From NCBI GenBank assembly GCA_040285855.1, contig JAUFOQ010000017.1:1178001-1242000 (forward strand): 64,000 nucleotides of DNA, written 5' to 3'. Of this stretch, positions 21,797-45,714 are shown in pieces. Under the pieces are notes generated by a model, which was not told where the DNA came from, ran no database searches, and worked only from the letters and a program-made list of their open reading frames with translations. The stretch's first letter is position 1. Each line of letters opens with the position of its first letter. Made by a program: the position numbers and the translations under genes. This DNA is from Eukaryota sp. GEM-RC1 (lineage: Eukaryota).

Positions 21797-23489
21797 TTAC
21801 TTCTTACAAACCATATGAGGAAACTTCCTTCCAAAAGCAAAGAATCCTCCAGAAACATTGGAAACGTCACATCCCTTCTGCAAAAGAGCCCTAAAGGCCG
21901 TATGAGAAAACTTTCCACTCTTACAGATAACAGCAAACTTTCCTTCAGGCAAGTCACTACTATCTCTAATAGTTGCCAATGGAATGTTTATCGATCCTTT
22001 GATCCATCCCATGTTCTTCCTCATCATTGGAGGACGAACATCAACAAGAGGAATGTTGTTTTCCATTACTTCCTCTGGTGTTACTGTCTTTGAAAGCCCC
22101 AACAACTCATTTTGAGCGACATTTCCAATGAAATTAACCACTGACTTGGGTCCAGCAACCACGGGAGCATAGGCCAACTCAAACTCAGCCAAATCAGCAG
22201 AAGTACCATGTAATTGGACATACACAGACAAAGTATCCAAAATCTTTGCAACATCAGCACAAGAACTGGCTACAGAAGCTCCAATTAAACGATCAGTACC
22301 CTTTTCAAATCTAGCAGACACATGAATGGGAGTGAAACCAGGAAACCATTCAGGTTTAGATGTCCACGTGGCATGAACCTCTCTAAAATCAACGTTAGCT
22401 CTTTTCAAGTGCTTAAAGGATGCTCCTACTTGACCAATGTACTGATCAAAGATTCTAAGGATACTGTTAGCACTGGCAGGAGGAATCTCTTTCATTGCTT
22501 CAGCATTCATTGCATTCCAAGCACAAAGACGACTAGCCCTGGCTGTAGGCCCAGCAAGCAATACAGGGAACTGTTCGCCAGTTGCAATATGTCTGAAAAG
22601 AGCGGCATCTCCCGAAGCAAATACACCTGGGATAGGTTCTCCAGACTCTAACAAGCATTGACCGTACTTGTTAGTCATGATATAGCCTCTATTGTTTAAT
22701 GAAACTCCGGAATCTTTTAGAAACTTTGTTTGGGGAATAACTCCTACTGAAAAGAGGACAAAGTCCGATTCGATATTACCAGCAGTGGTTTTAACAATGA
22801 GACCACCGTTATTCTGCTCTAATGCTTCACATTTGGTTTCAAGGAGGACATTAACACCGTTCTTTTACACGCGGATAAAGCATATCCAGCATAATCCTTG
22901 TCAAAGGTCCCATTAGCTGGTCAAGAAGCTCGACGATGGTGACCTTGATGCCCATGCCGGTAAGAGATTCAGCACATTCTAAGCCAACAAATCCTCCTCC
23001 AATGATGGTACAAGACTTGGATTGTTCAGCTACGGGTTTGATGTGTTCGAGATCAGTGAGGCTTCTGATGGAAAAAACGTTGGGGAGATCGTGGCCAGGG
23101 ATTGGAGGAACAAATGAGGAGCAACCAACGGATAAGAAGAGAATATCATATGGTTTAGTGGTGATGTTTGAACCGTCGGAGGGCTTGACAGTAACTTCCT
23201 TGGAGGATATATCAACAGCAGTACACTCAGTGTTGATGTTCATTTGTAGATTGAATTCAGCGGCTAAGCGGTTCGCGGTCATAACAGTAAGTTTATCAGA
23301 ATGGACTTCGCCAGAGATGGCAAAGGAATACCACATGCTGCGCTTGATACATGAGGAGATTTCTCAATGACGGAGATATTGAGACCTTCATCCATACGTC
23401 TTAAACTACCAGCAAAAGCTGGCCCAGCAGCAGAAGAACCCTGATATGAGGACAAAGAAAGAAATACGTACAATAACAATAGCGTTCAT
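21797..23489 (-). CDS. CoA-disulfide reductase / NADH oxidase-family flavoprotein with C-terminal rhodanese domain
   Basis: After a 31-nt intron (23441-23471): MNAIVIGSSAAG; redox Cys in SSAACGIP; IIGGGFVGLECAE; ASGDAA; ELAYAP; rhodanese LVDVR...ICKSG; three homopolymer frameshifts (~23323, ~22904, ~22864). Confidence 0.88.
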
Positions 23490-26013: not shown

Positions 26014-26170
26014 ATTGAACAATTTGGATAATTTCAGTCGTTTTCAATTCCCAGAACGTCAATGAGTTTAAAATGATACAGTTTACGGTATGAATCTGAG
26101 AAGATGTCTGACAAATTCTAAGATTCAATAATGCTACAAATTCACTGTAGTAAAAACGCTATGACTATGA

Positions 26171-28270
26171 CTATGACAAATAACTGGGTCTAACTCCTAG
26201 ACCCCGCTCCAAATGATGCTCCACAATGGTTTTGATGTTGATACATGCCAACTTGTTACGATTCCAAACCTTGGCGCTACCATGACATTCTTCTCTACAT
26301 TCTTGGGACTTACATCTCAACAAAGCGTGACACTTTACCAGAGGTTTCTTCTCTCTTTCCATGGTTTTGGATTACTGATTTCTTTGAACACTTTAACTGG
26401 CTTCCAACAAGTAGGACACTTTGAAGACGTGTAACTCTCGTCTACAAGAACGATGTTAAAACCATTTCTCTTAAAGAAGTTTCTCCAACCCACACCTCTA
26501 CTTGATCGGAGATGTTTTAGGTTCTGCCTCTTATTACCATTGTCACCAAACATCAATACACAGTCATTTTTCCATCCTTTTGCAGTCATATTTTTCAACA
26601 ACTTACTTTCTGTTTTTTGAATATGGACGTATCTTTGCATTTTTGAATGCGCCATATCATCAAACAGTAGTAGTCAAATGTTGATTCAATAACTGTTAGT
26701 TTGGAACCCACATAGTCATAGAATGTGTCATAAAGAGTCGATTTTTCTTCTTCTTCAACTGTTTTTCCATCTTGGAGAATGAATTCTTTTTTCTTTCCCC
26801 TTCTAAACTTTTGATGAACCCTTGACCATCTGGACTATTCTGTCTCTGTCAATCTTAGCCACTCGTCTTCTTTGTCTCTTCTTTCTCGGGCTTTTTGTTC
26901 AGGAAAAGGCCTATTTACTTCTCTCTGAACAAAAATAGAGTAAATCTGTTTTTCCAGGATCAATAAATACTTTTGTTTTCAATGAAAACTCTTCAACATC
27001 ATAGTCTTGAACATATTCTTCTTTACTAGAGAACTTTGCACTGTCTGGTTTAAAGGACATTCCCACACAGTCCTCTCTGGTAAGTTCAACACAGGCAGAG
27101 AAACCATCAGTTTTAATGGTATTGTTAAACTTATAACCTTTCTTTATAAATGGACGATTAAAGTTGAAAAAGTAGGACCAGAATTGATTTTGTTCAGCAG
27201 GAGACATTTTTTGAATTTCAGTTTGTGTATTCCAATCAGACATTTTCTTCTTGACATTCACTTGTTTTGTTGACAAAGTGGAACGTAATATTCCCCAAAG
27301 ACCTTGTGTGTCTATTTCAAAGAAACCTGGTGTGACGTGACGAACAATAGGAATTACATTGTAAGCACTTGCTCCTTCACATTCAAGATAGTTATTTATT
27401 TGAATCGCAGATTTAATAAAGGACTGGGGATGTTCACGAACTGATTTTAGTAGAGATTTAACGACTTTCTTTTTATAAACACCATTAGCATTTTGAACAT
27501 CAATTGATGGTGGGAAGAGAACATCAATAAAATATTTATCTCTAAACAATCCTTCAACATAGTCATTAGTTGCCCATAGAAGTTTAATTTTACCTGCAAT
27601 GTTCAAACTTCTATTACTGTCGTCTTGAAGAATTTCTGTATTACATCTTTGAATAAATTGTTTTATTTCTGCAGGGGTTTTTGGAATGTCATTTCTGTTA
27701 CCTTCAAGAAAGACATTTTTAACTTGTCTTAGTCTCCAACGAAAAACAGACTGTTCTTGTTTTGACATTGTTTCTTCTTGATCAGTCTTTTGAAAATAAA
27801 CATTAATAAATTTGTCAATGTATTGAGCATATCGCATTTTAATGTTTGCGTCCAAATTCGATTTAATAGTTTCACCAACCATTGCCATAAGCCGTGAGGA
27901 ATGAGCAGCTGGAAAGAGTGGAATTCCTCCATTGTTGAGCATTACTTGTTTGTATTCTTCTAAAACAAAGTTTTTCAAGTGTTCATTATATGTGGGAGGT
28001 CGTCCTTGATTACATAATAATTCAATCTTATGATGTTCAGCAGAGATGTATCTTAACAGAGTTTGAATATGTTCTACTTCTTTCCTTGTAATTAAAGGTA
28101 ATTTTTCACCATTCTTATCCATGTGTAATAAAAACAGCTTCAAGCAATAGGAAGTGTGCATTCTTAGTTTGTGAACCAATTGAGCATAATAATCGAGTAA
28201 TAGCGTTAATCCAAAATGTTTGACAATAGACTTTAGTGTAGTTTTATGTGTTACAAAAGTTGGGCGAACG
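26171..28270 (-). CDS. Fanzor1 (eukaryotic TnpB-derived RuvC nuclease) moiety
   Basis: FVTHKTTLKSIV, NIKMRYAQYIDKFINVYF, FFEIDT, YKFNNTIKTDGFSACV, RuvC-I FIDPGKTDLLY, LMFGD, rearranged RuvC-II LVDESYTSSKCPTC, HALLRC...C zinc ligands, RuvC-III WNRNKLACINI, RPSYL terminus. Confidence 0.9.
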
Positions 28271-28289
28271 ATTTTATTTGATTGAAACA

Positions 28290-29020
28290 ATAAAAACAAC
28301 TTCAATGCTATTACACTATCTTTGAAGCAATAGTTTACAACTTCTTGAGGTCTTTCATCAACACAATCAATAGGCAATAAGTGGTGAAATTCGTCATGAA
28401 GACGTCCTTTAGATTCGATTAATAAAAACCAACTTAATGATCTTAAAGACTTTGAACATTTTGAAACAATAAATTGCTTAGCATAAACGTATGAATCACA
28501 GACAATTCTACCAGCCCATTCAGAACAAACATTTTGCCATAGAGATGATAAATGAGATTTAGTTGTTTCATCTAGCATTGGTTCTGGAAAGTCGACTCCA
28601 AGTGTAACAATCCTGTTGCCTAAAACAACATTATCGAAGTCAGTTATGTTAAATCCAGTTAAAACTGAGGGATTTTTATCATTCAAATAGTTGACAAAAA
28701 CTCTAGTAACTGTTTTTCGTTTTCAAAAATCGAAGGTTTCTACAATCAGGTGGCAGTTCAACATCAGATTCATGAGTCAACTCTAAAGTTGCAACAAAAT
28801 TGTCTTGAAGGTAAAATTGATCTTTTATAAAATGACCAAACACTCCAGAAATCATAAAAACTTGTTGGTTTTGAATCCACACTTCTTTTTCTGCATCACT
28901 TTTCATTTTGAGTGATTCATTCTCGTTCTTTCTTTGATCATCCAACTCCTCTATAAGTGTTTCTGCAGGGATTTGATCAATTTCTCTAGTTTCAATATCA
29001 AAAGACAATATTGAACAATG
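28290..29020 (-). CDS. PolB-type DEDDy 3'-5' exonuclease moiety
   Basis: ExoI LSFDIET (D ~28999), VFMISGV, reconstructed FENEKQLLEFFVNYL, ExoII PSVLTGFNITDFD (D ~28635), ExoIII YCFKDS (D 28318-28320); no polymerase domain follows. Confidence 0.85.
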
Positions 29021-29082
29021 ATTAGAGTTATTTGGTAATTGGGAATGTTTGCGAAACTCAATCATTGGTTTTTTAGGAGGTT

Positions 29083-30300
29083 TCAAACTCTTTGTCGCTT
29101 TGATACTCCACTTGCTTTTGGTTTGGTGGTTTTCCTTTTGGCAACTGTTGTGTTTCTATTTCCTGTTGCTGTTGTTGTTTCAGTGGTGTCAGATGATTCA
29201 ATTGTTTCTGTTGTTTCTGTTGTATCAGGTTTCTCACAAGCAGCAACATTTATTTTTGGGGTTGGTAAATTTATTTCTGGAAGATCTGTCAACTCTGGAC
29301 GACTAAATTTATGATAACTTTCTTGAAATAATTCTTCAGCTTCTTCCAGCGCTTGTTCAATCATTTTTAACTTCAAAAGACGCTTCTTTTTCCTGTTAGA
29401 TAAATTTCCAGGTAAACTTTTGAGAAAGTTTTGATAAGTGAGCTTTGACACCGTTTCCTTGTAACTATTATCATCTACGATTGTTTCAGGAGTTAAACTT
29501 TCAGATTGACACTGTACAGGTTGATTAACAGGTGATTCAATCTCATCAGAATAAAACTCATTTAAAATACCTTGGGCATGAGTACATACATATTGTCGGT
29601 ATTCATCAGGATGATCTTCATCAGGGTGAGTAGTAACGATTTGAGACAGTATTTGTTTTCTCATTTCTAATGCACTATAAGCAACACAATTAGAGACTTT
29701 AGACAGAATTTCGAAAAGATTTATTGATGTTGATTCACACTCGACAAATTTATTCATATACATTAGAATAAATAGACCACAGTCATTGAGAGTTTGGACT
29801 TGTTGAACTGGTACTCTAGCTATATAGCTGAAATTTGCCATATCAAACAGGAATTGCTGTAATTGTGAAATGACATTGTCAATACGTGATAAAGTGTTAG
29901 AAAACTGAGATTGTTGATCTTCTGTACACATTGAGTCAATAGAGAAGTATTGTTTGTTTTCAATATCACAGATTAACAGTGACCAGTGAGTGGCTGTTGT
30001 ACCAAAGAGACCGTCATGTATTGGAATAAACAAGAAACGTTTCTTACACTTTTTAGTGTGTCTTTTACTTGATTTTTCCATTGATAATTGAACCTCTCTA
30101 AATTGTTCAAACATTATGTAATATTGTGAAAGATTGATTGCATCTTGAATGTTGGCTACTTCAAAGAACTCGCATAGATTACTCTTTTCAGCAATGTACT
30201 GACCAACATAGTCAATGACAGCATCATAAGCACAATCAACTCCCGAATTTCTCTGTAATTCTAATACATGTAAAAGGATCCGTTGCCAATTGAACGACTT
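29083..30300 (-). CDS. Ulp1/SENP-like (peptidase C48) cysteine protease moiety plus low-complexity linker
   Basis: CAYDAVIDYV in frame upstream of the ORF start, FLFIPIH...THWSLL (His ~29987), SIDSM (Asp), QQVQTLNDCGLFIL (oxyanion Gln; Cys ~29780). Confidence 0.85.
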   Translation of the reverse strand, partial: KSFNWQRILLHVLELQRNSGVDCAYDAVIDYVGQYIAEKSNLCEFFEVANIQDAINLSQYYIMFEQFREVQLSMEKSSKRHTKKCKKRFLFIPIHDGLFGTTATHWSLLICDIENKQYFSIDSMCTEDQQSQFSNTLSRIDNVISQLQQFLFDMANFSYIARVPVQQVQTLNDCGLFILMYMNKFVECESTSINLFEILSKVSNCVAYSALEMRKQILSQIVTTHPDEDHPDEYRQYVCTHAQGILNEFYSDEIESPVNQPVQCQSESLTPETIVDDNSYKETVSKLTYQNFLKSLPGNLSNRKKKRLLKLKMIEQALEEAEELFQESYHKFSRPELTDLPEINLPTPKINVAACEKPDTTETTETIESSDTTETTTATGNRNTTVAKRKTTKPKASGVSKRQRV

Positions 30301-30516
30301 ATAGAGAGTTGGTTTTTATTCAACAAAGAAGGCACATTTAACAGCACAACACTATTCTGTAATAGATCTAGAAAACCCAGAGAAAACTCTGTTAACACTC
30401 TACTTGACAAGGTATATGAGATCTCATTTTGAGGATTGTATGATTGTAGTCACATAATCCTACAAGAAAAAACGGTTGAATCAATTACGAAATTCGGTTG
30501 AACACGTGTCAACGCA

Positions 30517-32557: not shown

Positions 32558-34183
32558 CTATCGTGAAACAAGCCTCAAGGAGCTCTTCAATTTTTCCACA
32601 TCTGTAGTGGTTGGCAGACCTTCGAGAACATTGGTAACTCCACTCTCATCGACAACACATAGAAGAGATCCGTCATAACTCCAATCAAGAGAAGAGATCA
32701 CCTTCCCGATTTGAAAGCAATCAACCGGTCTATCTAAGGCAACCCCAAGATTCCAAATTTCAACTTTTCCTTGACCATCTCCAACAGCAAAGACACCTGG
32801 ACAAGCAGGACTCCACTTTGCAATCATCACAGGTGAATTGTAATCGTCACCAATCAAAATCGGATCAGTATTCTCATGATTAAGGTCATAAATATGCCAA
32901 GACCAGTTCAAAAACCCAACTAGAACCAGTTCTGTACAGTCTTGTCTTACGTACATGTCATTGTACTTTGGACAAGAAACTGTAATGGCAACTCCATTTG
33001 CCACACGTAGTCTTGAAGAATCCTGTTGACTGTCATACGCTCTATTAACACGTTTGATTGACGATATTCTTGATTGGGAAAGTGTCAACTTGTAGAGATC
33101 ACCGTGATTGTTCCCGACGACAATCAAACCACTAGTACTTCTGCAACCAGCTTGAATAAATCCATAGTCATCGTCGTTATTAATACTACAGCTGAGTATT
33201 GGCAATGACTTCTTCTCTAACAATCGACTACAAATCTGCCCATCAAATCCGATTGACAACACGTCACCAATCGATGGAAAATTAGGAAGGAGACACACGA
33301 TTGGGCACATGTGATCAGATTCTGAAGGAAAAGAGGACAAAGTAGGGGTATGAAAGTGAATTGCAGGTTTAGAAATATCCCATATATGAATCTGCCCATT
33401 CTTACAAGCTCCTACAACTAACGTAGGTCTATTTGGATTGAAGAAGGCAGTGACAACAGGAGAGGGAGAGGATAAAAGAAACTCTGGAGAAGAGAGTCTA
33501 TTGAGAGAGTAAACGAGAACCAATCCTGGATGACTAGAAGGGATGGTGGTGGGAGTAGCTGAAACAAGAAACATTGAAGGATCAGCTGTGGAGAAAGAAA
33601 CATGACAGGGTAAGTAAGATGAGAACTCTTCTGGGAAGGTGTAGACTGCTTTGACTGAGAGGGACGAAGAGATTGGCTTGAAAGTGGTGAGGGAGGAGGC
33701 GTGAGAACGTTGGGTTTGAGAATTACAAATGGAGCGTTCAACAATTGCAGAGCTTTTGGATAAGAAATTCTTAAAAGTGGATGATGTAAGGATTTCTTGA
33801 ATTTGGGATTGTGAGAGGCTGTATGGGGGATTAGAATGAGTACTGTCTGTGTTGATGGATTTGGATAGGGTTGGAGTAGGGGCATCGGTGGTTGAGGTTA
33901 CTTGAATTTCTTTTGGATAAACATGAGTTGAAGAAGGGGTGAAAGGAACTGTAAGTGAAGTTACATCACTTGAAGAGAGATTTGAAGGAACATCAACAGA
34001 TTTGAAAGAGGATTGGAGATCATTGATAATGTTGGAATACGGATCCGAAAAAGCAGTGTTTAAGAGGGAAGAATCAAGTTCCAGCTGTTGAAGCAGAGAT
34101 GACAGGTCATAGTCTGACCTCTCTAGCTGATCAGCAGCAGATTCAAGTAAAGACAGCTGGTCTTTTAGAGCGTCGAACTCCAT
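32558..34183 (-). CDS. Dynein intermediate chain (WD40)
   Basis: FKNFLSKSSAIVERSI, FNPNRPTLVVGACKNGQIHIWD, KWSPACPGVFAVGDGQGKVEIWNL. Confidence 0.8.
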   Translation of the reverse strand: MEFDALKDQLSLLESAADQLERSDYDLSSLLQQLELDSSLLNTAFSDPYSNIINDLQSSFKSVDVPSNLSSSDVTSLTVPFTPSSTHVYPKEIQVTSTTDAPTPTLSKSINTDSTHSNPPYSLSQSQIQEILTSSTFKNFLSKSSAIVERSICNSQTQRSHASSLTTFKPISSSLSVKAVYTFPEEFSSYLPCHVSFSTADPSMFLVSATPTTIPSSHPGLVLVYSLNRLSSPEFLLSSPSPVVTAFFNPNRPTLVVGACKNGQIHIWDISKPAIHFHTPTLSSFPSESDHMCPIVCLLPNFPSIGDVLSIGFDGQICSRLLEKKSLPILSCSINNDDDYGFIQAGCRSTSGLIVVGNNHGDLYKLTLSQSRISSIKRVNRAYDSQQDSSRLRVANGVAITVSCPKYNDMYVRQDCTELVLVGFLNWSWHIYDLNHENTDPILIGDDYNSPVMIAKWSPACPGVFAVGDGQGKVEIWNLGVALDRPVDCFQIGKVISSLDWSYDGSLLCVVDESGVTNVLEGLPTTTDVEKLKSSLRLVSR

Positions 34184-34214
34184 TGTTCTGAGGAGAATTT
34201 CTTTGAATCACCCA

Positions 34215-36572
34215 ATGTCTTCACTTGACTACTCTAATCAAGAATTGGAAGCTCCTTCTGCTTCCTATGAATCCAACAGCTCTTCTACGTTGCAGAAATC
34301 TCAGTCCGAAGATCCATCTTTGTCGATGCCACCAGACTCGCCTATCACATCAACCCCGGACGCAATGCTTCATGAAAATGACGACGACGCTGTAACATCT
34401 TCTTCGCCTGACATAAGGACAAATTCCGTACAGGAAGCACAAGAACAAAACTCATCACAATCTATTGATGCTCTTAATGAGGGCGTGGAATCCACATCGC
34501 AAGAAGTTGATGACTTGCCTCTTATTGTCTCTGGAGATGCCCATGCTCAAGTTGAAACTTCAGAGGAATCTCAAGAAACTGTTGTTGGTGAACCTGTAGT
34601 TGAATCTGTTGAAGAATCTGAGGAACATTTAGTAGATGAATCTCAAGAAACTGTTGTTGCTGAACCTGTTGAACAATTAGAAGAGGAATCTCAAGAAACT
34701 GTTGAACCTGCAGTTGAAGAATCTGTTGAACAAATAGCAGATGAATCTCAAGAAACTGTTGTTGAAGAATCTGTGGAACAAACAGAAGATGAATCTCAAG
34801 AAACTGTTGTTGCTGAACCTGCAGTTGAAGAATCTGTGGAACAAATAGAAGAGGAATCTCAAGAAACTGTTGTTGCTGAACCTGCAGTTGAAGAATCTGT
34901 TGAACAAATAGCAGATGAATCTCAAGAAACTGTTGTTGAAGAATCTGTGGAACAAACAGAAGATGAATCTCAAGAAACTGTTGTTGCTGAACCTGCAGTT
35001 GAAGAATCTGTTGAACAAATAGCAGATGAATTTCAAGAAACTGTTGTTGAAGAATCTGTGGAACAAATAGAAGAGGAATCTCAAGAAACTGTTGTTGCTG
35101 AACCTGCAGTTGAAGAATCTGTTGAACAAATAGCAGATGAATCTCAAGAAACTGTTGTTGAAGAATCTGTGGAACAAACAGAAGATGAATCTCAAGAAAC
35201 TGTTGTTGCTGAACCTACAGTTGAAGAATCTGTGGAACAAATAGCAGATGAATCTCAAGAAACTGTTGTTGAAGAATCTGTGGAACAAATAGAAGAGGAA
35301 TCTCAAGAAACTGTTGTTGCTGAACCTACAGTTGAAGAATCTGTGGAACAAATAGAAGAGGAATCTCAAGAAACTGTTGTTGAAGAATCTGTGGAACAAA
35401 TAGAAGAGGAATCTCAAGAAACTGTTGTTGCTGAACCTACAGTTGAAGAATCTGTGGAACAAATAGAAGAGGAATCTCAAGAAACTGTTGTTGCTGAACC
35501 TACAGTTGAAGAATCTGTGGAACAAATAGCAGATGAATCTCAAGAAACTGTTGTTGAAGAATCTGTGGAACAAATAGCAGATGAATCTCAAGAAACTGTT
35601 GTTGTTGAACCTGCAGTTGAAGAATCTGTGGAACAAATAGCAGAGGAATCTCAAGAAACTGTTGTTGTTGAACCTGCAGTTGAAGAATCTGTTGAACAAA
35701 TAGCAGATGAATCTCAAGAAACTGTTGTTGAAGAATCTGTGCAACAAACAGAAGATGAATCTCAGGAAACTGTTGTTGAAGAATCTGTTGAAGAAATAGC
35801 AGATGAATCTCAAGAAACTGTTGTTACTGAACCTGCAGTTGAAGAATCCGTGGAACAAATAGCAGATGAATCTCAAATAACTGTTGTTGTTGAACCTGAA
35901 GTTGCATCTACTGAAGAACAAGAAGTTTCTCTTGACTCTCTAGTCCAAGACAATCACTCAGAAGAAGACGATGAGTCTAAACCTGTCCCATATAGAGCCT
36001 TGTACTCATTCCAAGCTAGAGTAGACAATGAACTGTCATTTGAAGCAGGAGAAATAATACTATTACTTGAAAAACACGAGTCTGGCATGTGGAAAGGCAA
36101 AAAGATGAGCAACGGTCGGTGTGCTTACTTTCCGTACAACTACTGCGAACCAGTCAACGCTCCACCAATGTCACAAACCAATAACTTGACTAGACCAAGC
36201 GTTAGACTATCTCTAGGTGTACAAAAGAATAATCCATTCGCTGTGAAGCACCACGGATGGTTAACAAAGCAAGGCAATTTCTTTAGAACTTGGAGGAGGA
36301 GATGGTTTGTTCTGCGTAATAGTGCACTGTGTTATTATAAGAACAAGGAAGATACGAAACCGAAGAACACCATTCATTTAACTCCGCTTTCGAGTGTTGA
36401 ACCTGTGCCTAGAACTATCTATTCAATGCTGAGGGTGAATAAGCCAGTTTCTTATTGTCTTATGCTATCGTCATCGCCAGGAGCACGTGTATTCTATTTT
36501 ATAGCGGATAGCGAAACTGAAAGGAATCAATGGATTGAAAGCATTAGACAAGCAATACCTCATTCAAAGTAG
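34215..36572 (+). CDS. Acidic-repeat protein with C-terminal SH3 and PH domains
   Basis: YRALYSFQARVDNELSFEAGE...GMWKG...FPYNYCE (SH3); GWLTKQGNFFRTWRRRWFVL...ERNQWIESI (PH). Confidence 0.9.
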   Translation: MSSLDYSNQELEAPSASYESNSSSTLQKSQSEDPSLSMPPDSPITSTPDAMLHENDDDAVTSSSPDIRTNSVQEAQEQNSSQSIDALNEGVESTSQEVDDLPLIVSGDAHAQVETSEESQETVVGEPVVESVEESEEHLVDESQETVVAEPVEQLEEESQETVEPAVEESVEQIADESQETVVEESVEQTEDESQETVVAEPAVEESVEQIEEESQETVVAEPAVEESVEQIADESQETVVEESVEQTEDESQETVVAEPAVEESVEQIADEFQETVVEESVEQIEEESQETVVAEPAVEESVEQIADESQETVVEESVEQTEDESQETVVAEPTVEESVEQIADESQETVVEESVEQIEEESQETVVAEPTVEESVEQIEEESQETVVEESVEQIEEESQETVVAEPTVEESVEQIEEESQETVVAEPTVEESVEQIADESQETVVEESVEQIADESQETVVVEPAVEESVEQIAEESQETVVVEPAVEESVEQIADESQETVVEESVQQTEDESQETVVEESVEEIADESQETVVTEPAVEESVEQIADESQITVVVEPEVASTEEQEVSLDSLVQDNHSEEDDESKPVPYRALYSFQARVDNELSFEAGEIILLLEKHESGMWKGKKMSNGRCAYFPYNYCEPVNAPPMSQTNNLTRPSVRLSLGVQKNNPFAVKHHGWLTKQGNFFRTWRRRWFVLRNSALCYYKNKEDTKPKNTIHLTPLSSVEPVPRTIYSMLRVNKPVSYCLMLSSSPGARVFYFIADSETERNQWIESIRQAIPHSK
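34560..35900 (+). repeat. Coding tandem repeat of ESQETVV[AEPAV]EESVEQIAD/EE units
   Basis: Alternating 48-bp and 63-bp units built around GAATCTCAAGAAACTGTTGTTG. Confidence 0.95.
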
Positions 36573-43268: not shown

Positions 43269-45714
43269 TAGAGTTGGCAAATGACGACGTCATGACGAGT
43301 CATGACGATGTCAGGCCAAGTCGACGTGACGTGACTTCCAACAAAACCAAGTCACGTCATCGTCACGTCAAGTCACGTCATCGTCATCGTTACATGACTT
43401 TTGAAGTAGATATTAACACACTTTATTCCAAAAATCCTACAGGCTACAAATCATTCCATGAGTTCAAACAAAGCAGTGCTTGTACTGAACTGGAACTCAA
43501 ACGAGTTCTTCTATCAGTAACTGTGAGACCTGCTTGTGAAAACAACCTTTCACTTGGTACTGATGTTGCTTGGATGCACAAAAAGTCACAAGCCATGGTC
43601 GAAAGCACAGGGAATCTTGCCGAATGTGCTTCCCAATACGCCAATGGTTCGAAAGATGACACTGGTTCACCAATGTATTGTTGACGCTCATCAACCAACA
43701 CTACGTCATCGTCACTCTTGTCACTCTCGTCGTCTTCGTTTTCGTCATCATCAGAGCTATCAAACAATGATGGAGTTTGATTAATAGCACTTTGGGGATT
43801 TTCATTTTCCTGAGAAGCAATTTTAGCCTGGTACAAGACAAACTGTTGATCAAATAGTGATCTCAGTAGTTCTGTGTTCAGTTGATGGGGGATTTTTTGC
43901 AACTTTACTCTAGGATCGAGAATGCATGACATGTAAGATGTCAAATCAGACATAAACGGTTCGTACTTCTCAAATTTTTCAATCATTGCTTTGACTGCGA
44001 TTTGAAGCATCTCCTCTAAGTACTGATCGGTTTGCAATTGTCTCAAATTGTTAAGTAATCTGAAGAAGCCATGGACAGCAACAGATAACACAGGATATGC
44101 TGAAGCAGACACTCGTGTCGTAAGTGATAAAAATGGTTTGAGAATTTTGCCAATTGATTTCACAGTTGCGCATTCATCAGTAGTGAGTTTAAGATTTCTG
44201 AGCTTAGCATCATTGTTAGAGATGACAATATTAATAGGTCTAAGCAATTTTTCATAAGACTGGATCATTAAAAATGTGGAGTTCCATCTTGTCACAACAT
44301 CTCTGACAACTACTCGTCCTCCTTCAACATTCAATTCATCGGCAGCCTTCTTCAATTGTTGCTGCAAATAAGAAGACTTCTTCATCTTCATTGCGAACTT
44401 TCTTTACTAGAGGCTGCAATACTTTCAGACCTTCTCGAACAGCTAAGTTCAAGATATGACCCAGGCAGCGACGATGCGTCAATCTTTTCATCACTCTCAC
44501 TTCTTCTCTATCATCATCTTCAACCACATCCAAAGCCTCAGAAGGGTAGTCGTTGGAATCGAATGCTGCAATTGCATTTACCATGTTGGACGCGTTATCC
44601 GTTGTGATACTGATAACACGTTTATCAATACCAAATTCGTCGAGTAACTCTGTAATTGCATTGAAAACATCAATCGATGCGTGAGGATGTGGTAACTCAC
44701 GACAGTCCAAGGTATAGCTGTTATAACAGAAATTTTGGACAAAGTGTACAGTTACTCCAAGGAAAGGGGCATTAGCAGCAGAAGTCCAGAGATCCAGCGT
44801 CAAGGAGAATTTGCCGTGGTGCTCCTTACAAGCATTGATTAGTTTTTGTTTTTTTCCTGCGAACTCAGCTAGAATAATCTCTTTAATGTTCTTTCTTGAC
44901 GGAACAGTTACTGAGCTATTAATAAAGTTTATCAATTTCAGAAAAAATGGATTTTCCACTTCATAGAATGGCTAATGGCTGTTCACAATCCATTGTGATA
45001 ACAGAACTTCGAATTCCTTTTGCTGTTGTGCTGATATTGGTACCGCAACAGCAACTGGTGCAGGAGTATTTAGTAATAGTTGATTCTTGACGGTTTTCCA
45101 GTTTCTATGGCATTTTTCCAAATGATTGCGCATAGTGTCTGTATTTCTTCTTTTATACTTGACAGCACTGACAACCTTTTCCTTCACACACATCAAACAG
45201 TGGATGTACCCAGCAGAATCGGCGTCACTAAAGAAGGGTGTGACATCAGAGGTAAACTTTTTGCCTGGTGGAGAGGTTAAAGGAGCGGGAGCATTTGCAG
45301 CAGTACTAATTGAGGGTTGAGGTGAAGAAGGAGAATCATCTTCTAAATCAATAAAGACGGGAGTAGCTCGTTTGTTGGATGGTTCAAGAGTTGCAAACGC
45401 TGAGAAGCTTGATAAACGCTTTTGTATAGGCATTATGTATGAATATGAAGTAATACTGATTTTATTATCTTCTAGTGACCAAAACATGATACCTATCATT
45501 GTTTATAAAAGCATATGTAACAAATAACCCATTATTAAATACAAAAACAGAGTATTAATAAACAGACTCAGAAGTCACGACGACGTCATGACGTCGTCAC
45601 CAAAAACCAAGTCGACGTGACTTGAAGTCATCGGAAAAAACCCAAGTCGACGTGACTTCAAGTCACGTCACGTCATGAAAAAGTCATGACCCGTCGCGTC
45701 GTTTGCCAACCCTA
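43269..45714 (-). mobile_element. Full-length hAT transposon
   Basis: TIRs TAGAGTTGGCAAATGACG / CGTCGTTTGCCAACCCTA; near-TSD TAGGGGAG vs CTAGGGAG; GTCACGTC/GACGTGAC subterminal arrays. Confidence 0.92.
43444..45433 (-). pseudogene. hAT transposase with BED zinc finger (in-frame TAG at 44972-44974, frameshift ~44390)
   Basis: BED CLMC...HLEKCH; TLDLWT, TTDNASN, RCLGHILNL, TRWNST, LDPRVK, SVPSERLFS. Confidence 0.92.

Follow-up and report, generated by a model that had tools for sequence, protein, structure and literature searches.

In a 64,000-nucleotide stretch of the Eukaryota sp. GEM-RC1 assembly (GCA_040285855.1, contig JAUFOQ010000017.1, positions 1,178,001 to 1,242,000; hereafter the window), the minus strand carries a broken, 5'-truncated gene remnant (26171-30228) whose parts are, in order, a C48 protease, a linker, a DEDDy 3'-5' exonuclease of the family B polymerase (PolB) type and a Fanzor1. 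The remnant was delimited by tblastn and frameshift-aware alignment against sister proteins. GEM-RC1 and the related TZLM organisms are skoliomonads, free-living anaerobic metamonads, and their assemblies are based on short-read-corrected nanopore data and contain 28-55% repeats (PMC11316075; here and below, statements from cited papers refer to the portions of their text that were accessible). The word Fanzor does not appear in the accessible text of that genome paper.

Layout of the locus

The coding sequence lies in open frames at 29083-30315, 28703-29155 and 26911-28722, followed by three short pieces that lead to the stop at 26171. The third frame comprises 603 codons from stop to stop (591 if counted from a TTG at 28686) and, as a preliminary description of this DNA had reported, contains the exonuclease motifs ExoII and ExoIII and continues unbroken into Fanzor1 WED/REC sequence and RuvC-I. 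The codons of ExoI and of the protease His, Asp and Cys, also part of that description, are present upstream. Pfam likewise returned the domain order that it had anticipated, with Peptidase_C48 in the first frame (E 9e-11), DNA_pol_B_exo1 opening the third (E 1.4e-6) and, below the cut-off, a TNB zinc finger close to the Fanzor end (E 2e-4). Protease and exonuclease are separated by a basic low-complexity linker (29015-29599) containing one short conserved helical motif, which recurs between subfamilies at 29-37% identity.

The exonuclease domain

The exonuclease occupies 28276-29014 and was assigned by PF03104, alignment and the fold of sister protein P0053. Its motifs read SFDIET (ExoI, 29005-28988), GFNITDFD (ExoII) and YCFKD (ExoIII), so that the DEDDy pattern is present in the window codons as D-x-E, N-x3-F-D and Y-x3-D, respectively (ExoI Asp 28997-28999 and Glu 28991-28993; ExoII Asp 28633-28635; ExoIII Tyr 28330-28332 and Asp 28318-28320). 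ExoI Asp and Glu as well as ExoII Asp are invariant in all nine aligned rows. A model of P0053 (pLDDT, the predicted score of the local distance difference test, 78) matched Pol alpha with a Z score of 18.2 and a root-mean-square deviation (rmsd) of 2.8 over 190 aligned residues. Overall, PolB exonucleases scored Z 12-18, 17 chains of them Z 14-18, compared with at most 11.9 for stand-alone DEDD nucleases. As to the donor lineage, Pol delta ranks first by profile and all PolBs are nearly tied by fold. The domain has its fold and ExoI/II/III motifs in common with the proofreading exonucleases of Pol delta, alpha, epsilon and viral PolB. Unlike in family B polymerases, about 30 extra residues of predicted helix follow ExoI, and the palm, fingers and thumb are absent, with the Fanzor WED domain directly following ExoIII. 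By motifs and modeled fold, the domain is a PolB-type 3'-5' exonuclease with predicted activity.

The fold ranking also bears on the possibility that the domain acts on RNA rather than DNA and matures the 3' end of the omegaRNA. A Fanzor1 omegaRNA carries read-through flank at its guide end and needs shortening there to ~15-20 nt (PMC11423790), and RNases occur among the DEDD folds. However, the domain ranks with PolB proofreading exonucleases at Z 14-18, with RNases at about 10 or less, and the non-family Fanzor1s examined do without such a domain. Guide trimming is considered distinctly unlikely.

The Fanzor1 domain and its junction with the exonuclease

The Fanzor1 part (26171-28275; WED, REC, RuvC and TNB) was identified by sequence matches to SpuFz1 and PpFz1 and by the fold of sister protein P0004. 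The only solved structure matched by the 603-residue frame is SpuFz1 (E 7e-5), from residue 144 onward. The window encodes IDPGK at RuvC-I (Asp 26959-26961), LVDESYTSSKC at RuvC-II (Glu 26437-26439) and WNRN instead of WNRD at RuvC-III (Asn 26255-26257). Its RuvC-II Glu sits at the relocated position just ahead of the zinc finger, which is the rule in Fanzor1 (PMC13565253, section 5.5). WNRN is also found in the family proteins that reach RuvC-III, resulting in a D-E-N triad. The RuvC-III Asn differs from the RD motif given for Fanzor1 in PMC3627910 and was considered as a mark of a dead nuclease; this was rejected, as GtFz1 cuts with the same D-E-N triad and D606N raises the activity of SpuFz1 (PMC11423790).

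Residues 249-927 of the P0004 model (pLDDT 79) align with GtFz1 at Z 21.1 (rmsd 4.7, 522 residues aligned), the template modeling score against SpuFz1 is 0.83 normalized by the target, and the top seven Foldseek rows are all Fanzor1s. The family shares with SpuFz1, PpFz1 and GtFz1 a common fold, the WED-REC-RuvC-TNB order, the relocated RuvC-II Glu and a multi-copy state. It differs in having a PolB-type exonuclease of ~250 residues and up to two C48 proteases upstream in the same chain, which brings its length to 940-1,900 residues compared with 600-700. In an unrooted tree, the 16 family rows fall on one side of a long branch with 100/99 support, separate from 34 other Fanzor1s; the latter are a random draw from 82 eligible sequences, and the fragments P0050, P0053 and P0066 were left out.

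In the window DNA, a single frame encodes both exonuclease and Fanzor, with no linker in between. In eight proteins read across the junction, the distance from the ExoIII Asp/helix to the first WED strand is ~15-20 residues, which argues that the join is fixed. Exonucleases are 21-50% identical among seven subfamilies and Fanzor parts 28-53% among eight; the acidic residues of ExoI and ExoII were kept while the exonucleases diverged about as far as the Fanzors, which points to long joint retention. The exonuclease-Fanzor fusion is real and forms the constant unit of the family.

Distribution of the family

A search with the 603-residue frame returned 9 proteins, all labelled Eukaryota sp. GEM-RC1, TZLM3-RCL or TZLM1-RC. 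The set was widened by protein-cluster look-ups and two further searches, and a motif census was carried out on 209 non-window proteins. ExoI, ExoIII and RuvC-I/II/III are found in one chain in 10 of the 209, three of which also carry the protease. A further count gives 22 proteins spanning ExoIII and RuvC-I, under three organism labels, and 11 combining protease and ExoI. All three parts occur in single called proteins in P0024 (1571 residues), P0201 (1846) and P0204 (1905), in line with the one-gene architecture first proposed. The exonuclease-Fanzor join is seen in eight subfamilies from three skoliomonad-type protists. Judged by protein clusters, the gene family is multi-copy, and the window gene is a copy of this likely mobile gene.

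Outside this group, none of the Fanzors examined has an exonuclease. A search of 1.84 billion representatives yielded 147 new rows among the best 150 of 216 matches, and the eight with an exonuclease all come from GEM-RC1/TZLM3-RCL/TZLM1-RC-type organisms; no exonuclease was found on any non-family Fanzor among those 150. Fourteen metagenome loci and one viral locus match P0004 only from residue 251 onward, and the exonuclease profile was empty in their open reading frames (ORFs); these 15 loci are stand-alone Fanzor1s only. Querying the exonuclease in a viral scan and a phage search returned nothing. Five of the stand-alone loci (L002, L003, L007, L009 and L010) lie on AT-rich contigs of giant-virus-like appearance, each near an opposite-strand ORF that by eye resembles a Mariner/IS630 transposase.

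State of the window copy

Compared with intact sisters, the window gene has six one-base breaks, one in the linker (29099), two in the exonuclease (28728 and 28699) and three in the Fanzor1 part (26919, 26644 and 26357). It also has an in-frame TAG at 26835-26837 and lacks 8 codons near 26745. Of the six breaks, three fall within 5-nt runs and a fourth within a 3-nt run, while the remaining two are not plain contractions of a run. Sister homology starts abruptly at 30228, giving a coding part of ~1,350 codons, and 30229-30449 is not shown to belong to the gene. The preliminary estimate of a roughly 1,400-residue protein restored by single-base homopolymer corrections alone is thus not confirmed. 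Upstream of this point, sisters P0030 and P0032 have an additional stretch in common that includes another protease domain. Of the two tandem proteases in fuller copies, the window protease is thus the counterpart of the second, and it lacks the first ~12 residues of the domain.

Assembly noise may account for some of the one-base breaks, given the three within 5-nt runs and the pyridine nucleotide-disulfide oxidoreductase with a rhodanese domain nearby (21797-23485), which also changes frame at short A/T runs. As a control this is mixed, five other host frames of 509-813 codons being unbroken, and neither the TAG nor the 8-codon deletion is a run-length error. Given the breaks, the stop, the deletion and the 5' truncation, the window copy is probably dead.

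The many one-base breaks in the window, together with chimeric gene models among relatives, could raise the suspicion that the fusion itself is an artefact of assembly or gene prediction. This is contradicted by the window DNA, in which the exonuclease-Fanzor join is open, and by its recurrence under three organism labels. The protease-exonuclease joins of sisters are likewise colinear with the window: P0005 and P0030 (94% identical) read through 29099, 28728 and 28699, at each of which the window is one base short, with no residues skipped. An artefact has next to no probability.

The N-terminal protease and a 2A-like motif

The C48 (Ulp1-fold) cysteine protease (29600-30228; PF02902 above cut-off, best PDB rank SENP8) has its triad at 29986-29988 (His), 29935-29937 (Asp) and 29779-29781 (Cys). 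His, the oxyanion Gln and Cys are invariant in all eight aligned rows. One type of the protease has Asn in place of the Asp or lacks it. With a profile of eight rows, SENP8/NEDP1 came out on top (E 8e-12), followed by SENP5/2/1 (1e-8 to 4e-7) and Ulp1 (2.5e-6), a rank that does not amount to specificity. By this ranking, the protease appears nearest SENP8/NEDP1, and deSUMOylation, as originally suggested, is not the best guess for its activity. Ulp1 domains are known transposon cargo (PMC2836005). Like the Ulp1-domain cargo of Ginger1 and Mutator and like SENP8/NEDP1, the enzyme is a C48 His-Asp/Asn-Cys protease, here on a repeated element; in contrast to that cargo, it is fused to an exonuclease-Fanzor rather than a DDE transposase, and SENP8 outranks Ulp1 and SENP1/2. 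Its likely role is that of an accessory de-NEDDylase/deSUMOylase, such as transposons often carry.

The protease is a swappable module. Family proteins have zero, one or two copies, and N-terminal parts are exchanged between subfamilies: the P0024 protease is 75-80% identical to those of P0099/P0202, although identity between the P0024 and P0202 exonucleases is 30%. A tripartite effector, as first envisaged, is therefore borne out as an architecture present in sisters but not as the constant unit, which is the exonuclease-Fanzor pair.

In fourteen of 207 proteins, all labelled TZLM3-RCL, the protease or exonuclease is immediately preceded by a 2A-like motif. The core D-V-E-x-N-P-G-P is found in 8 and variants in the other 6, compared with a chance expectation of ~1e-5 in 8,015 residues. 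The window copy lacks the motif, with no NPGP in any of the six frames of the window. Nearly identical 2A peptides from aaliviruses appear in Table 1 of PMC11512398, and 2A/StopGo skipping is described in PMC12338488 and PMC12846837. Fuller sisters share the pattern W-x-x-D-L-T-x-D-G-D-V-E-x-N-P-G-P with the 2A/StopGo sequences of aaliviruses and non-LTR (long terminal repeat) retrotransposons. They differ in that the motif precedes a protease-exonuclease-Fanzor chain and that some variants have His for Glu, and skipping is predicted only. The leaders before the motif in P0034, P0038, P0042, P0200 and P0202 contain repeated VVYD words across subfamilies, a sequence feature that suggests a left end shared among them and containing short DNA repeats.

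Such modularity raises the question of whether the exonuclease is a passenger, or is released by the protease and acts apart from the Fanzor. Fanzor elements are often chimeric (PMC3627910), and exchange of N-terminal modules within the family would fit. Against this stand the linkerless junction kept in eight subfamilies and P0066/P0198, in which no protease lies between the 2A-like motif and the exonuclease. A passenger role is held to be highly unlikely.

Element ends and possible carriers

By analogy with Fanzor1 loci (PMC10432273), the omegaRNA and the right end of the element would be expected between RuvC-III and the start of the neighboring leucine-rich repeat (LRR) gene (26020-26260). 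Three tandem TCATAG units (26160-26178, minus strand) span the Fanzor stop and are followed by a 5-bp hairpin (26142-26158, minus strand); as a possible right end, this combination is not above chance. The 5' junction matches 58622 over 18 nt without further extension. A hAT transposon at 43269-45714 has ~18-nt terminal inverted repeats, subterminal repeats and a transposase in several frames. It lies 13 kb away from the Fanzor locus (43.3-45.7 kb) and was rejected as a carrier because of its unrelated ends and the host genes in between.

Spread by an RNA copy, in a manner resembling non-LTR elements, was considered as well: the Fanzor would nick, the exonuclease would prepare a primer and a reverse transcriptase acting in trans would copy the transcript. 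This would fit the 2A-like motifs, a known non-LTR feature (PMC11512398), and the window copy, which is 5'-truncated without terminal repeats and has (TCATAG)x3 across its stop codon. P0209, moreover, joins a zinc knuckle and a non-LTR (R2-like) reverse transcriptase to the middle of an exonuclease. However, P0209 is one of 45 exonuclease-bearing proteins, lacks ExoI and the C-terminal end of the retroelement, and has the appearance of a chimeric gene model or a nested insertion. Neither a target duplication nor poly(A) was found at the window locus, and Helitron2 elements also contain 5'-truncated Fanzor1 copies (PMC3627910). The RNA route is regarded as very doubtful.

DEAH-helicase-like regions, 20% identical to each other, precede the exonuclease-Fanzor in P0192 and P0200, members of two subfamilies. 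They may reflect a larger element with helicase cargo or chimeric gene models. Being single, differently joined gene models, neither these helicases nor the reverse transcriptase of P0209 were accepted as proven protein parts.

Proposed function of the exonuclease-Fanzor unit

OMEGA nucleases (for obligate mobile element-guided activity) cut the empty site and thereby prompt gene conversion from the filled sister, known as restorative homing (PMC13565253). In SpuFz1, the non-target strand is cut after base 16-17 past the target-adjacent motif (TAM) (PMC10432273). We hypothesize that the fused exonuclease trims the 3' single-strand tail left by the Fanzor cut, so that host recombination copies the element back, a proposal to which we give an even chance. 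The Fanzor1 WED domain binds the TAM side. In known Fanzors, the omegaRNA guide corresponds to the right flank, and the cut falls at the empty site, consisting of TAM and right flank. The TAM-side fragment would then end in a 3' tail of ~16 nt of right flank, unmatched to the filled allele, in which the TAM is followed by the element; this tail would have to be removed before the left end could prime synthesis into the element. An exonuclease fixed to WED would be well placed to trim it in cis. Yeast clears such tails by Pol delta proofreading or Rad1-Rad10, an activity of which the element would have a copy of its own, tethered to WED. In fuller copies, the 2A-like motif may free the protease-exonuclease-Fanzor chain from a short leader. 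Consistent with this proposal, the 3'-5' activity of yeast Pol delta can remove non-homologous 3' tails and chews back as much as ~40 nt of invading 3' ends (PMC9477423). The preliminary description had the exonuclease resecting or trimming ends; 3'-tail trimming fits, while resection as understood in recombination has the wrong polarity for a 3'-5' enzyme.

Several observations weigh against tail trimming. At the window locus, which is one truncated copy, the lowest z of omegaRNA folding in 17 windows was -1.6, within coding-region background, an Rfam search was empty, and terminal inverted repeats and target duplications were at shuffle level only. No transposase, Rep-helicase or reverse transcriptase is adjacent to the Fanzor locus in the window. 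No omegaRNA structure, ends or transposase of the kind known from other Fanzor1s were thus identified, which leaves the excision that restorative homing requires putative. The P0099/P0202 subfamily lacks the ExoII Asn and ExoIII Tyr. In the two-domain model of P0004, pLDDT is below 50 over much of residues 145-246 and the exonuclease half is poorly predicted, so the model gives no position for the exonuclease site with respect to the tail. The sisters are known as gene predictions at the protein level, P0054, P0192, P0200 and P0209 being evident chimeras, and all ten whole proteins carry a single organism label, TZLM3-RCL. All six window-subfamily proteins that reach the A-run at 26644 lose frame there; systematic error, a shared lesion and recoding are three candidate causes. 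In yeast, pol3-01 did not affect the mismatch-correction bias in tailed single-strand annealing (PMC10868807). Finally, engineered TREX1, TREX2 and T5 fusions impaired MmeFz2 editing (PMC12923547), which counts against every model in which the exonuclease acts on DNA ends.

One such model is destructive: the exonuclease would erode cut ends and thereby delete targets, such as rival elements, viruses or empty alleles, as in engineered nuclease-TREX2 fusions. The same catalytic conservation and tight tether would be expected, and targets abound in the repetitive genomes of relatives (28-55%, PMC11316075). However, the family exists in many copies that decay in the manner of a selfish element, neither a guide array nor a domesticated single copy was seen, and the impairment of the engineered Fanzor2 applies here too. 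Destructive erosion seems rather unlikely. A bolder reading, to which only a low probability is given, would be a transposase-free selfish element working as a one-chain natural 'cut and prime' RNA-guided system. The Fanzor would open the site and the exonuclease would trim back as far as the TAM; extension across the element would then fall to a polymerase of the host or to a reverse transcriptase in trans, with the NEDD8/SUMO protease of the 2A-split polyprotein steering host repair.

The host role of Fanzors is stated as unknown in the accessible text of the founding paper (PMC10432273). Retention of a 3'-5' exonuclease on a Fanzor1 through a radiation to ~30% identity points to a step after the cut. 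The homing model is directly testable, as one ExoI mutation should separate cutting from copying.

Comparison with described systems

In engineered Cas/Fanzor-exonuclease fusions with TREX1, TREX2 or T5, an RNA-guided nuclease is likewise tethered to an exonuclease. In contrast to these, and to the impaired MmeFz2 fusions in particular, the skoliomonad family is natural, PolB-derived and linkerless. It thus represents a natural counterpart of engineered nuclease-exonuclease fusions, and the whole members P0004, P0193 and P0204 are available for expression.

No natural Fanzor/TnpB-exonuclease fusion was found described in the literature searched, a scope that leaves aside subscription journals and Repbase, and none of the literature matches listed joins a Fanzor to a Ulp1/SUMO protease or polyprotein. 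In the accessible portions, the words exonuclease, fused and protease are absent from PMC3627910, and exonuclease and fused from a 2026 review (PMC13565253). No natural exonuclease fusion appears in the accessible text of PMC10530073 and its two text supplements (figure S1B lying outside this scope), of PMC10432273 or of the main text of 10.1101/2023.08.09.552727. A DnaQ-like domain is reported only in LTR elements in the accessible part of PMC6338049. In agreement with the preliminary description, the exonuclease-Fanzor1 architecture is apparently undescribed.

Other features of the window

The Fanzor locus is flanked by the LRR gene and a SUN-domain gene. Further along, at 34131-36572, the window encodes an SH3-PH protein with a long Glu-rich tandem repeat.

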